Virus record (IMG/VR): IMGVR_UViG_3300028393_000045
DNA length: 64,000 nucleotides
Origin: an uncultured virus (IMG/VR IMGVR_UViG_3300028393_000045)
Lineage: Duplodnaviria; Heunggongvirae; Uroviricota; Caudoviricetes
Direction: 5' to 3' (one strand)
The notes below the pieces were generated by a model that did no database searches, was not told the origin of the DNA, and saw only the letters and a list, made by a program, of their open reading frames with translations. Of this stretch, positions 200-4,170 are shown in pieces (position 1 is the stretch's first letter; every line of letters begins with the position of its first letter). Position numbers and translations under genes: made by a program.

Positions 200-1048
200 A
201 TGGAAAATCAACGCAAAAACCCACTAGCTGGGCACTTTAGACAACCGGCTATTTACTTAACATTACCCAGCAAAGGTCGATGGTGGGGTGAAAATGCTCT
301 AAATATGCCAGCAAACCAAGAAATACCCATTTATCCAATGAGCACCAAAGATGAAATTATACTCAGAACACCAGACGCATTGCTAAATGGCCAGGGTATT
401 ATAGAAGTTATTCACAGTTGTTGCCCAAATATATTAGATGCATGGCAAATGCCTAGCATTGACGTAGATGCTGTGTTAATAGCAATACGCATTGCCACCT
501 ACGGCAATGACATGAATTTTGATAGTAAATGCACACATTGTGGTGAAGATAATACACACGGGGTAGATTTAAGTGAGCCATTGGCTAGTTTAAGATGTCC
601 TAACTATGCCGAACCATTAGAACATAAAGGCTTAAAAATAAAGTTTAAACCACAACATTATTTTACTGCTAATAAATCAAATGTTTTAGAGTTCCAAGAA
701 CAAAAGATATTAAATTTACTAGCAGCAGCAGACATGGATCCAGAAGATAAAGCAGTGCAAATAAAACAGGCAATGGATAAACTTTTTGATCAAGGCCTCA
801 GGGCCTGTACGGACTGCACAGATCATATAGAAATGGAAGACGGCCAGCAAGTACATAATACTGACTATATCTTTGAATTCTACACAAACGCTGAAAGCGG
901 ACTAATCCGCGAAATACAAGCTAAAGTACAAGAGTTTAGCAATCAAGCTAAACCTGATGGAATAGCACTAGCATGTCAGGAATGCCATAAACCATACGAG
1001 GTAGAACTAGCGTTCGATTACGCAAATTTTTTCGGAAGAGGCTTTTAA
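200..1048 (+). CDS. Baseplate hub assembly protein, T4 gp26-like
   Basis: NPL..FRQP.IYL.LPS start; two CxxC pairs (CTHC, CQEC); ends DYANFF. Confidence 0.75.
   Translation: MENQRKNPLAGHFRQPAIYLTLPSKGRWWGENALNMPANQEIPIYPMSTKDEIILRTPDALLNGQGIIEVIHSCCPNILDAWQMPSIDVDAVLIAIRIATYGNDMNFDSKCTHCGEDNTHGVDLSEPLASLRCPNYAEPLEHKGLKIKFKPQHYFTANKSNVLEFQEQKILNLLAAADMDPEDKAVQIKQAMDKLFDQGLRACTDCTDHIEMEDGQQVHNTDYIFEFYTNAESGLIREIQAKVQEFSNQAKPDGIALACQECHKPYEVELAFDYANFFGRGF
1024..1033 (+). other. Candidate -1 ribosomal frameshift site (A AAT TTT TTC)
   Basis: Overlapping X XXY YYZ heptamers in the correct phase, 5 codons before the stop; the -1 frame is open to 1266. Confidence 0.65.
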
Positions 1049-1266
1049 CTTTAAACACTGACGCAGAGGTCATCAAGTTCTTAGAGAGATATGACCGAGA
1101 AGTAAAAGCCTTAAAAGAAGAAACATTGCGTATGTGCTGGTATATGAGAGGAGGAGTATCTTATAATGAACTCATGGAAATGAGCAACATTGAAAGAACT
1201 ATCATTGGGGATATTATTAAAAGCAATTTAGAAACTACTAAAGAATCCAAATTGCCTTTCTTCTAA
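1027..1266 (+). CDS. gp51-like baseplate/tail assembly protein in the -1 frame (not in the ORF track)
   Basis: FFRKRLLTLNTDAEVIKFLERYDREVKALKEETLRMCWYMRGGVSYNELMEMSNIERTIIGDIIKSNLETTKESKLPFF*; first ATG only at 1132. Confidence 0.7.
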   Translation, partial: FFRKRLLTLNTDAEVIKFLERYDREVKALKEETLRMCWYMRGGVSYNELMEMSNIERTIIGDIIKSNLETTKESKLPFF

Positions 1267-1279
1267 TATTCTTTATCTA

Positions 1280-1720
1280 TTCGAGACTTGCTGTGCAAGT
1301 CTATTGCTATCGCTATCGCTCAGCAATATTATTTCTTCTAATCTAAGAAACAATTCTAAATACTTTTAATTCGGATATATTATCTAGATGTAGATCACAA
1401 TTCGGCCCAGCAGGCCAAAATTGTGATCGAGACATTATCTGAGTGCCTTCAACACACTAACTATAAGAGATTGCTTGCTGGTGCAAACACGGAGGCGGTC
1501 ATCCTGTACCCCCTACTCTAGATTCGATTATGACGGTACACTATACAATAACTAGTTAGCGCCATTGTTAGTGCTTGGGTTGTATATTTTTTACAGAGCC
1601 CAGATCATTTAATACCTTACGTTGGTATCTTACCGTACAGCTCCTAAGTCTGCGGGTGTTATTTCACACACACTCAATAGGGATCGAGGTACCTCGATCA
1701 AACGACGCTGCTATAATAAT
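1280..1720 (-). ncRNA. Candidate large structured ncRNA with a pseudoknot
   Basis: No convincing ORF; many stems, long-range helices and an 8-bp loop pseudoknot; G-U pairs favour the - strand. Confidence 0.65.
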
Positions 1721-1725
1721 TTGCC

Positions 1726-2247
1726 TTAGCGGCTGGATTTACATAGTTGTTCTATTGATTCGGAATTTTTATTCCAGAATGATTCAAAGTCTTGGATGAT
1801 CCATGTGCCATAATTAGGAGAGATATACGTGGAGTAATTGGGATTTAGTGATAGACTTGGTGTCGGTTGACAGGCAATATAAGTGCCTTTGCGATTAAAT
1901 TTCATGAGTAATATATTGAAATCGCCAGTGTTGGCCACTTCTAATAACTGCCCAATCCATTTTTCTAATATAGGTATTGTACCTTGATAAAGTTGATGGA
2001 ATGGAAAATCAGCATAACTCTTTGCTTCCGCATTAAAATATGTCCAAGATTCCGGGGGAACAATATCTCCTTTGAAACTCTTAACTTGACTTGCATCAAG
2101 ACTTGCTTTTCTAAAAGAATTTGTTCCGCCAATGTACGCTCCGCTGTGTGGTGCTCTAATAAAAGAGGCATTGTGGCGCTCAGATAGAAATTTGGCAACT
2201 ACACGTTCCCAGGAATTTCCTTTATTTTTGCTTTTTGATCCACTCAT
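1726..2247 (-). CDS. PD-(D/E)xK Holliday junction resolvase-like nuclease
   Basis: KGNSWER...GDI...EAKSY motif; lies downstream of gp46/gp47. Confidence 0.7.
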   Translation of the reverse strand: MSGSKSKNKGNSWERVVAKFLSERHNASFIRAPHSGAYIGGTNSFRKASLDASQVKSFKGDIVPPESWTYFNAEAKSYADFPFHQLYQGTIPILEKWIGQLLEVANTGDFNILLMKFNRKGTYIACQPTPSLSLNPNYSTYISPNYGTWIIQDFESFWNKNSESIEQLCKSSR

Positions 2248-2306
2248 TGATTTTTGTACCTTGACTATTACTTAGCTTAATTCTCTGTATCTGTGTATTT
2301 TTTATT

Positions 2307-2391
2307 AAAAAAACTGCGGCTGGGTGGCCAACATGATGGACTAAAGTATTGTATTATATTTTTATTATATAGTATTCGTCCCAGCCGCAGT
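2307..2391 (-). terminator. Long hairpin with a 12-bp GC-rich stem and U-tract
   Basis: ACTGCGGCTGGG 2313-2324 / CCCAGCCGCAGT 2380-2391; A-run 2307-2313 gives a U-tract on -. Confidence 0.5.
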
Positions 2392-2403
2392 AAATCTGTG
2401 TAA

Positions 2404-4170
2404 CTATGAGTCTATATCAGTCCCATACGTGGTATAACCGTTGCTTTTGGTGACCCTTAATATATTTTCAACCCTGGCAACTAACTCATCTCGATGACTA
2501 ACTAACCAAACACTCTTCTTGCCATCCCTGCTGAGTTTTTTAAGTATAGCCAATGAACTTTCCATTCCGCTGGAATCTAAACCTGAGTCAACTAATTCGT
2601 CGACAAATAACAAATTGACTTTCTGATATAGGCTTTCCCATACATCACGGAATGCCCAACTTAAACTTAATATAAGTCTATTGCGCTCACCTCGGCTGAG
2701 ATTGTCAAAGTCTAAATCTCTACCTAGCTCTGTGATACTGACTGTGAGATCATTTTGAAACTCAACTTGATGTGGCAGTCCAATCTTTTCTAAGTAGTAA
2801 CTCAGTCTGGTATTTAAATAACTTAAATTTTGATCAATTATTTTTTTGCGAATAAAACTGTCTTTGCTGGTTAACAACTTGAGTAAGAATTCTTCATGAT
2901 CCTTCATCTTAGTCAACTGGTTAATATTATCGTAGCTAACTTCTTCTAATGCAGTTTTTGTCATTTCTTCAATTTGATCATCGTATGGATCAATTTCAAG
3001 TTTTTTCTGTTCTATTTGCTGCAACAGATTTGCTAATGTAGCTCTATGCTCAACGGCGTCTGACTCGCGGTCGTAAAACACATTAGGATGTGTACCTAAT
3101 GCACCCAAGTCGTTTAATTCCTGTGTATTTTCTATGTATTGAGTATTAGTAGCTAGCGACTGTAGTGCAGCCTCTTGCAATGCTTTCTTTTTGCTGTCTA
3201 ACAATTTTACTTGTTTATCATCGTGGAATGATTGCCCGCAACTATGACATGTATGATTTTCTAAACTGGCTATTTCAGTTTTAAGTTGATCAATAAGTTT
3301 AATTTCGCGAGTTTCATCTAGTTCACAGCGTTTAATTAAACTGTTAAGAGTTCTAATCTTTGTTGATTTTTCGTTGTAGGCTGTTAATGCACGATGTGCA
3401 GCTAGCTCTGCCTCAATGTCAATTTGATTCAATTGATCATATGCGCTTTGTAGTTGGTCGCAATCTGTATTGTATTTGTTAACCCAAAGAGTTTGTCTGC
3501 GTCGTAGGGCTTGAATTTGTTCTTCTATGCGTTTATTTGCATCAATGACAGCTCTAATGCGGAATTCGTCCTGCTGTATATCGTCTTTGGTCTGTTTAAT
3601 TCTATCTTTTAGTACTTCTGCTTTTTCACTTAGCAGGGTAATACCCATTAGCTGCTCAATGATTTCTCGTTGATCGCTGGCCCGTAGACTTAAAAAGGGC
3701 TCTGTATAGGTGTTTAATGCAACAATATGCTTAAACATACTGTGGCTCATGCACAATAGTCGTTCAATGTCCTGCTGTGTTTCTCTACTATCGCCCTGAC
3801 TTTCATCTACAATCTGTTGCTCAACATCAGCAACATAAAATTTCATCACGTTAGGTTTACGTCCGCGTTCAACTCTATATTCAACGCCGTCTTTTTCAAA
3901 ATCAATAGTAACCATCATGCCTTTGGCATTAGTTCTATTAATCAGATTGTCTTTTTTGATATTGGTTAGTGCATTGCCATACAAAGCATAGCTAACTATA
4001 TTCAATAATGCGCTTTTTCCAGTGCCGTTGCGAGCACCGCTATCGTCGCCGCCTAAGTCGAGGTTCTCGCCCAGTATCAGTGTTAGGTCATTACGATCTA
4101 AATTGACACTCTGGGTAACATTGCCAATTGACAAAAAGTTTTTTGCCGTAACAGATTTTATTTTAAGCAT
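2404..4170 (-). CDS. Recombination endonuclease subunit, gp46/SbcC/Rad50 ATPase
   Basis: Walker A NGTGKS, CHSC zinc hook, LSRGE signature, LFVDE, SH. Confidence 0.93.
   Translation of the reverse strand: MLKIKSVTAKNFLSIGNVTQSVNLDRNDLTLILGENLDLGGDDSGARNGTGKSALLNIVSYALYGNALTNIKKDNLINRTNAKGMMVTIDFEKDGVEYRVERGRKPNVMKFYVADVEQQIVDESQGDSRETQQDIERLLCMSHSMFKHIVALNTYTEPFLSLRASDQREIIEQLMGITLLSEKAEVLKDRIKQTKDDIQQDEFRIRAVIDANKRIEEQIQALRRRQTLWVNKYNTDCDQLQSAYDQLNQIDIEAELAAHRALTAYNEKSTKIRTLNSLIKRCELDETREIKLIDQLKTEIASLENHTCHSCGQSFHDDKQVKLLDSKKKALQEAALQSLATNTQYIENTQELNDLGALGTHPNVFYDRESDAVEHRATLANLLQQIEQKKLEIDPYDDQIEEMTKTALEEVSYDNINQLTKMKDHEEFLLKLLTSKDSFIRKKIIDQNLSYLNTRLSYYLEKIGLPHQVEFQNDLTVSITELGRDLDFDNLSRGERNRLILSLSWAFRDVWESLYQKVNLLFVDELVDSGLDSSGMESSLAILKKLSRDGKKSVWLVSHRDELVARVENILRVTKSNGYTTYGTDIDS

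Follow-up and report, generated by a model that had tools for sequence, protein, structure and literature searches.

A large pseudoknotted RNA of uncultured giant phages with two identical, covarying sequence words

Genomic context of the non-coding gap

The window analysed here is a 64,000-nt stretch of the uncultured virus IMGVR_UViG_3300028393_000045 (Caudoviricetes), whose own IMG/VR record is a 109-kb virus fragment estimated to be 31% complete. Near one end of the window lies a non-coding gap (1267-1725) between two convergent ORFs, which end at 1266 on the plus strand and at 1726 on the minus strand. The plus-strand side comprises a gp26-like baseplate hub gene followed by a gp51-like frame; on the minus strand, an SbcC/gp46-like gene precedes a gene for a small nuclease (Table 1). 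The latter, called a resolvase in an earlier sequence-only reading of this DNA, encodes a PD-(D/E)XK protein that also matches PHROG 244, named 'RusA-like Holliday junction resolvase'. The window flanks weakly resemble jumbo T4-distant phages, for example PA5oct and RaK2.

Two signals were noted among these genes. The gp51-like frame (1020-1266, plus strand) lacks an ordinary start and is shifted by -1 with respect to the gp26-like gene, and a T_TTT_TTC slippery run lies at about 1027-1033, upstream of the gp51-like frame, an arrangement that suggests a programmed -1 frameshift. Between the gp46-like and nuclease genes, a long hairpin rich in GC (CTGCGGCTGGG...CCCAGCCGCAG), with a T-run behind it (2319-2390, minus strand), is probably a terminator parting the gp46 and nuclease transcription units.

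Table 1. Genes and RNA elements at the locus, in window coordinates. Percentages are fractions of alignment cells that pair; covarying pairs are those that change on both sides.
Feature	Position	Strand	Evidence or remarks
gp26-like baseplate hub gene	200-1048	+	Pfam T4_baseplate; PHROG 'baseplate hub'
gp51-like frame, convergent neighbour	1048-1266	+	after the gp26-like gene
Structured RNA as a whole (~430 nt), spanning P1 to P13	1284-1714	-	predicted extent, by helices
P13, terminal hairpin	1284-1302	-	93.7% paired; 7/8 pairs covary
P12, hairpin with tandem G-A pairs and GNRA-like loop	1303-1327	-	92% paired; 7/7 pairs covary
A-rich linker, 5' of P12	1328-1378	-
Word B, single-stranded AGAUAAU lying 55 nt 3' of word A	1379-1385	-
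P11, long hairpin between the two words	1393-1428 (stem 1393-1402/1419-1428)	-	96.5% paired; 7/8 pairs covary
P10, hairpin whose 12-nt loop holds word A (1434-1440, AGAUAAU)	1430-1448	-	stem poorly aligned, 53% paired, variable register
PK1, 3' strand, pairing with P7 loop 1553-1560 (GCUAACUA/UAGUUAGU)	1456-1463	-	alignment-free helix test
P8, enclosing P9 and P9b	1466-1519 (1516-1519/1466-1469)	-	99.0% paired; 4/4 pairs covary
P9b, variable hairpin	1473-1488	-
P9	1491-1513	-	99.7% paired
PK2, 1530-1534 with 1498-1502 in the P9 loop	1498-1534	-	91.9% paired; 4/5 pairs covary
P7, long hairpin; loop 1553-1560 enters PK1	1538-1574	-	84-91% paired; 11/11 pairs covary
P6 and P6a, conserved GAAAAAGAU-like loop	1576-1602	-	>99% paired; 5/7 pairs covary
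P5, hairpin with conserved 7-nt loop AAC(G/U)UAA	1611-1629	-	88.5% paired; 4/5 pairs covary
P3 and P4 region	1643-1681	-	P3 (1678-1681/1643-1646) 100% paired; 4/4 pairs covary
Conserved internal loop UUGA / GA(N)CU, between P3 and P4	within 1643-1681	-
P4, hairpin with conserved 8-nt loop	1652-1673	-	80-98% paired
P2, hairpin (18-nt palindrome)	1682-1699	-	63.5% paired; 7/7 pairs change on both sides
P1, closing a three-way junction with P2 and P3/P4	1637-1711 (1707-1711/1637-1641)	-	85-100% paired; 3/3 modelled pairs change on both sides
173-aa PD-(D/E)XK nuclease, upstream neighbour	1726-2247	-	Pfam PDDEXK_15, E 8e-21
SbcC/gp46-like gene	2404-4170	-	precedes the nuclease gene on the minus strand

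The gap encodes a structured non-coding RNA on the minus strand

The sequence-only reading had proposed that the gap holds a large, pseudoknotted non-coding RNA, read from the minus strand downstream of the putative resolvase. The covariation found in homologues is strong and sustains this proposal, and we regard it as almost certain that positions 1284-1714 of the minus strand specify a real structured non-coding RNA of ~430 nt. The minus strand folds at -139.1 kcal/mol, compared with -108.7 +/- 5.8 kcal/mol for 100 dinucleotide shuffles (z -5.21, none of the 100 as good); the plus strand reaches a z of only -2.41. Across the modelled pairs we counted 737 G-U as opposed to 81 A-C cells and, because G-U so far exceeds A-C, the folded molecule is the minus-strand RNA, the strand that had been proposed from the G-U pairs of the window itself. 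Taken alone, P12 and P13 do not have this asymmetry (18 versus 19). No conserved ORF was found in the RNA region, the longest ORFs of the homologues differing in position and measuring between 32 and 108 aa, and the only frame of any size, a 74-aa one on the plus strand (1575-1799), was rejected as protein-coding, being broken by stops in 13 of the 14 other homologues.

Covariation supports fifteen helices and two pseudoknots

Helices were derived from pair statistics and mutual information in 35 and then 67 non-redundant sequences, and two covariance models were built, R1 for the core (q186-350) and R2 for the 5' domain (q12-191), where RNA positions are given as q = 1726 - window coordinate. 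The models match the window at 1376-1539 with 108 bits (R1) and at 1535-1714 with 130 bits (R2), the window itself being in the seed of both. Helices within R1 and R2 were scored on model-based alignments; the window-based columns of a MAFFT alignment were off by one for several helices.

Comparative support extends to 15 helices and two pseudoknots. In the core (97 sequences), 92.0% of cells are paired compared with 74.0% after shuffling, 25 of the 30 pairs change on both sides and the covariation score is 0.448 as against 0.142; none of 500 shuffles reached the real value on any of five measures, and slid controls scored 0.04-0.08 (maximum 0.079). The figures for the 5' domain (84 sequences) are similar, with 88.1% versus 66.4% paired, changes on both sides at 40 of the 43 pairs and a covariation score of 0.521 versus 0.171 in shuffles and at most 0.124 in slid controls. 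Model-fitted alignments lean towards the modelled helices, yet PK1 and PK2, which lie outside the models, covary as well. For PK1, in which the P7 loop meets the J8/10 strand, we used an alignment-free test that takes the best helix per RNA: in 80 of 84 homologues this helix reaches a score of 5 or more, with a mean of 6.86 compared with 4.36 for permuted partners (sd 0.12, maximum 4.73), and at least 40 helix types occur among the homologues. The low pairing of P2 arises because two registers were aligned together. These helices fold the RNA into two domains, P1-P7 and P8-P13, tied by the two pseudoknots.

All the pairings listed in the sequence-only reading are present in the window where it had placed them. 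Five of its hairpins (P2, P5, P7, P11 and P13) and its pseudoknot, PK1, proved to be conserved and covarying when aligned across related phages, as it had asked. Two further helices fared differently. The long-range helix 1382-1392/1514-1523 can form in the window, but across homologues it is paired no more than in shuffles (78.5% versus 78.2%) and does not covary, one of its positions being U-U in 24 of 67 sequences; it is the covarying P8 that uses its 5' strand. Helix 1533-1538/1631-1636, likewise present in the window, is specific to it, shows no covariation and overlaps PK2.

Distribution and gene neighbourhood of the RNA

Nucleotide-level conservation of the gap is detectable by blastn even where the nuclease is only ~50% identical. 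In a nuclease-anchored set of 80 IMG/VR loci, the profile found the RNA in 58, always on the strand of the nuclease, and a divergent form, subfamily 2, which was first recognised by eye and then confirmed with its own profile, occurs in 10 more, so that 68 of the 80 loci have the RNA in one form or the other and 12 have neither. In subfamily 2 the gene order is gp26, gp51, RNA, nuclease, all on one strand, and the RNA ends in a hairpin and U-tract just before the nuclease start codon; the inner motif of P12 is kept there, where the convergent gene is absent.

A 14-base core motif has an estimated ~950 matches in IMG/VR, and the RNA is present in 68 of 120 fetched matches, the rest being chance occurrences. 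Among cultured phages the RNA was not found: blastn queries with the RNA of the window and with one from the GIY-YIG clade matched none of 50,697 phage records, and the syntenic region of PA5oct gave no nhmmer or R1 hit. A stricter core motif, run over 185,579 prokaryote species represented by a single genome each, hit 2 contigs, of 148 kb and 183 kb, in one Haliscomenobacter metagenome-assembled genome (MAG); these carry two different RNA copies (L202 and L203, with the words AGAUGA and GGAUGA). The two contigs may be binned phage contigs or a hint of the host. The RNA family occurs in many uncultured giant T4-distant phages.

The association with a small nuclease holds when loci are chosen independently of that gene. 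When the RNA motif was the sole basis of choice, 39 loci extended 1.6 kb or more upstream, and 37 of these carry a small nuclease gene in the orientation of the RNA and no more than 1.5 kb upstream of it (28 GIY-YIG and 9 PD-(D/E)XK, as assigned by tblastn with one query per family). Pfam searches of 12 upstream proteins identified 8 SegE-like GIY-YIG nucleases (142-159 aa) and 1 PDDEXK_15 protein, with 3 left without a family. In either class the neighbouring nuclease is little more than a catalytic domain. GIY-YIG and PD-(D/E)XK nucleases have unrelated folds, and the slot between gp46 and the RNA, as compared in the window and in the upstream ORFs of L086, L092, L093, L097, L105, L095, L139 and L159, looks like a site of non-orthologous nuclease replacement beside the same RNA. 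On the other side, gp51 lies downstream on the opposite strand, as in the window, in 33 of 46 motif-picked loci of at least 2.5 kb, and inserted ORFs of ~1 kb can part the RNA from either neighbour.

Two identical words flank P11 and change together

A new finding on the RNA is a pair of single-stranded words of 6-7 nt, A and B, that flank P11 and that in the window both read AGAUAAU (Table 1). The 12-nt loop of P10 contains CUC plus word A, and the linker after P11 contains UCU plus word B. Among 67 non-redundant sequences, 66 have the same hexamer as A and B, and so do 93 of the 97 sequences aligned to the model; agreement extends to the seventh base in 76 of 84. The four mismatched cases differ by one base (L010 and L012), throughout (L087) or in what looks like an alignment truncation (L098).

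This identity is maintained over many different words. The 93 identical pairs comprise 16 shared hexamers: AGAUGA (27), GGAUGA (26), AGAUAA (18, the word of the window), GGAUAA (9), AAAUGA (2) and eleven seen once each, such as GUCGGA, AUAGCA, AACAAA, ACCGAA and AGCUGA. On a tree of 84 relatives built without the word columns, word A changed at least 35 times and word B at least 34 times. In phylogenetically independent pairs, B follows A at position 1 in 12-13 of 13 comparisons and never goes the opposite way (p ~0.0005), and at position 5 in 7 of 7 (p 0.016). The same rule holds amid the different flanks of subfamily 2, where GGACAGA occurs twice in L014, L015 and L024 and GGCAAGU twice in L075, and in both copies of the Haliscomenobacter MAG. 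The words covary by identity, not by complementarity, and the segment between them is kept in all 97 aligned homologues. We know of no described RNA in which covariation is by identity rather than complementarity.

In the window (1379-1448, minus strand), each word lies in a loose module of ~24 nt that reads AUGAC, ~7 nt, A, three pyrimidines, the word and U. By sequence, the twin modules look like an internal duplication around P11.

Comparison with known RNA families

Beyond the ribosome, RNase P, self-splicing introns and a handful of 'ornate' orphans, few classes of large, highly structured RNAs are known. The present RNA matches none of those represented in Rfam. We searched 4227 Rfam families, including ROOL, GOLLD, RNase P and group I introns, and found no match at the gathering score in the whole 64-kb window, only sub-threshold miRNA and snoRNA noise at E up to 10 in window 1000-2400, and no match in 16 homologues (E up to 5) or in subfamily 2 (E up to 10); ARAGORN detected no tRNA or tmRNA gene in the window. 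The absence of tRNA, tmRNA, RNase P and group I features, asserted earlier from the letters, is upheld by these searches. The companion suggestion, that this is a large phage RNA in the style of ROOL or GOLLD or else a new class, stands in its second half; the likeness to ROOL and GOLLD is confined to size and ornateness. Nothing on this RNA was found in the portions of the literature available to us. From these comparisons, the RNA appears to be a new family, recognisable by P1-P13, PK1 and PK2 and twin identical words flanking P11, all of which the window has.

Several known classes could be set aside individually. Membership of ROOL or GOLLD and identity with bacterial RNase P RNA fail on the respective Rfam covariance models; a short AGAUGAAUG-like stretch shows no more than a resemblance to the J18/2 region of RNase P. 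A group I intron is excluded by the lack of an Rfam match and by the position of the RNA between convergent genes or, in subfamily 2, between two complete genes, and a T-box leader by the lack of a match and by neighbours that are nuclease and baseplate genes. A mere intrinsic terminator is ruled out by 15 covarying helices and two pseudoknots over ~430 nt.

Comparison with the nearest analogues brings out what is distinctive. Like ROOL, GOLLD and OLE, the RNA is hundreds of nucleotides long, has many helices and pseudoknots and no ORF, is phage-associated and emerged from comparative genomics; unlike them, it lies beside a small nuclease gene and baseplate genes, and it has no Rfam match to them. 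To our knowledge, none of the three has an identical, covarying word pair. The bridge RNA (seekRNA) of IS110-family elements has two loops with programmable guides, of which the parts that read the shared core must agree, and so resembles the present RNA as a structured non-coding RNA with two short stretches that must agree. It differs in adjoining a DEDD/RuvC-like recombinase, the neighbours here being GIY-YIG or PD-(D/E)XK nucleases of 142-176 aa, in having less than half the length, and in a shared core of 2 nt as opposed to a whole word of 6-7 nt. An IS110 bridge RNA was rejected accordingly: the tested upstream genes encode PDDEXK_15, SegE-like GIY-YIG or proteins without a Pfam match, and no DEDD recombinase.

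The T-box specifier loop is similar in that a large multi-helix RNA exposes a variable triplet followed by a near-invariant purine, and 15 of the 16 shared words end in A. The present RNA, however, has two such sites, is not the leader of an aminoacyl-tRNA gene, and also covaries at the two bases before the 'triplet', which codon-anticodon pairing leaves unexplained. Type III antitoxin RNAs (ToxI, CptI, TenpI), which are phage-related too, consist of direct repeats in which a recognition sequence bounds a folded unit. Such RNAs form tandem arrays of whole 34-45 nt units ahead of a gene for an endoRNase toxin. Repetition here is limited to the word and the loose 24-nt module, a 6-nt x 3.3 repeat being all that TRF detects, and the gene downstream is the convergent gp51-like frame, not a toxin gene; we therefore rejected this assignment. 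The bypass site of T4 gene 60 likewise has matched short sequences ~50 nt apart around a hairpin, compared with 55 nt here in a T4-related phage, and the word reads as a codon followed by UGA or UAA in 84 of 97 RNAs. A bypass reading of the words nevertheless fails, there being no ORF through the site and stops in all frames; in addition, the landing copy is here also followed by a stop, and the identity spans 6-7 nt.

Expression signals and searches for a partner of the words

Four lake RNA-library runs yielded a few low-depth contigs over the locus: an adapter-flanked 123-nt insert (1511-1633), a contig from a relative (1572-1703) and one that bridges the 3' end of the nuclease gene and the RNA (1645-1904). 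As evidence for a transcript, for which the sequence-only reading had called for metatranscriptome coverage, these contigs are weak: their depth is low and such libraries may hold DNA. Scans of the window found nothing resembling a promoter at 1726-1800 or from the nuclease stop to P1, and nothing resembling a terminator where the RNA has its 3' end.

We looked for a sequence that tracks the words. Mutual information revealed no third column that does so in the RNA, where complements of the word gave scattered matches only, and no complement recurs in a constant position over the ~4 kb to each side. Neither the locus's own word (157 versus 178.7) nor its complement (115 versus 114.8) is enriched or depleted in 419 kb of flanks, and a crossed design gave a count of 237 as against 234 expected. 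The window itself has 10 matches, 2 of which are the words themselves, as against 17.3 expected from shuffles, with no matching depletion in the crossed test; partner searches of the window and its 109-kb record likewise returned nothing. Because the flanks show no word avoidance, a restriction-like nuclease guided to DNA by the bare hexamer is disfavoured. Other motifs compared by eye (a box C/D k-turn, CsrA GGA sites and an anticodon-loop mimic) each fail on part of the word set.

Possible roles of the twin words

Our leading reading, held tentatively and at somewhat less than even confidence, is that the folded scaffold shows two identical words to one outside base-pairing partner. The folded body would act as a rigid scaffold presenting both words, which are exposed, A in a hairpin loop and B in a linker; the partner would be a short nucleic-acid sequence present twice, or else a target with two-fold symmetry, and whenever its sequence shifted, both words would have to shift along. 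Base pairing is favoured over a protein that reads the bases because so many unrelated words are found. Besides the empty partner searches, two points count against pairing: a partner U opposite the common A/G positions would allow it without any need for equal words, and a partner that changes together with the two words needs three coordinated changes. As to its production, the RNA of the window's family would probably be made as the tail of the nuclease transcript, and that of subfamily 2 would end in its own hairpin and U-tract terminator.

It is less likely that the words are twin processing or protein-recognition sites for one endoribonuclease or RNA-binding protein, which could, for instance, free the ~55-nt piece containing P11; the RNA would then resemble type III antitoxin repeats or a decoy for a sequence-specific host RNase. 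Two identical exposed sites around a stable hairpin, each within an imperfect ~24-nt repeat module (AUGAC...YYY-word), are what such an arrangement predicts, fast turnover of the words would fit an arms race, and a nuclease gene adjoins in 37 of 39 loci. However, sixteen unrelated words would need as many protein specificities, the nuclease comes from two unrelated families while the RNA remains unchanged, whole units do not form a tandem array and no toxin-like gene follows, and no read ends or joints fall at the words in the few low-depth contigs.

Rather more doubtful is a purely architectural RNA after the manner of ROOL, GOLLD and OLE, that is, a self-assembling scaffold or cage in which the words would be contacts between protomers or with protein and not guides. 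The size, the two pseudoknots, the GNRA-like loops and the tandem G-A motifs suit tertiary contacts, the RNA is confined to phage sequences, and solved ornate RNAs are reported to be homo-oligomers (10.1101/2024.12.08.627333). Homology to ROOL, GOLLD or OLE was not found, though, and identical sequences cannot pair mutually unless they are palindromic; none of several antiparallel registers tried by hand for word-on-word pairing fits all words.

The base-pairing reading has a more specific form, which we consider unlikely, in which the RNA is the programmable half of an RNA-guided giant-phage system. The heptamers would be guides that place a partner protein on a repeated or two-fold symmetric target, that protein could be the neighbouring minimal nuclease acting as a dimer, and the guide would often be reset in an arms race.

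A role of the RNA as a cis-acting untranslated element is improbable, whether as a 3' UTR stabiliser of the nuclease mRNA, as a leader in subfamily 2 or as a two-way terminator serving the convergent gp51. The lack of a separate promoter-like site at 1726-1800 and the contig joining the nuclease 3' end to the RNA would fit such an element, as would the plus-strand reading of P12 followed by the complement of the A-rich linker, a hairpin and U-tract that could terminate gp51, and the missing G-U/A-C asymmetry in P12 and P13. Yet neither a terminator nor a stabiliser would call for anything near ~430 nt of conserved pseudoknotted structure, the RNA follows the nuclease in one family and precedes it in another, ORFs of ~1 kb can separate it from either neighbour, and the P12 motif is kept where the convergent gene is absent. 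Least probable is a DNA-level element with words as identical cores of direct-repeat recombination sites, or as part of a replication origin, and hairpins as DNA cruciforms: site-specific recombination does require identical overlap sequences of 6-8 bp, and nuclease and recombination genes are nearby, but the 737 G-U versus 81 A-C cells show that one strand acts as a single-stranded RNA, 97 of 97 homologues retain what lies between the words, and no joints occur in the contigs examined.

Each class of large RNA of this kind has either revealed new biochemistry or stayed a puzzle. The present one is abundant in uncultured giant phages, with an estimated several hundred IMG/VR stretches carrying it, its secondary structure is unusually well fixed by natural variation, and the words provide a built-in functional clue, hinting at an unfamiliar mode by which an RNA recognises its partner. 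If the words were guides, the RNA would represent a new programmable system tied to minimal nucleases; should they have some other role, the RNA would remain well suited to cryo-EM and would add a new family to RNA catalogues.

Variation among lineages

Two lineage-level features were noted within the family. In L014, L015, L024 and L075, the subfamily 2 RNA upstream of the nuclease (at about 3343-4006) has several CUAAUAU repeats ahead of it, possibly a promoter motif of the phage. In L149, L129 and L191, a small additional hairpin, capped by a GCAA loop (GAGGCGCAAGCCU-like), lies in the 5' domain between P4 and P3 and is a lineage-specific expansion of that junction.
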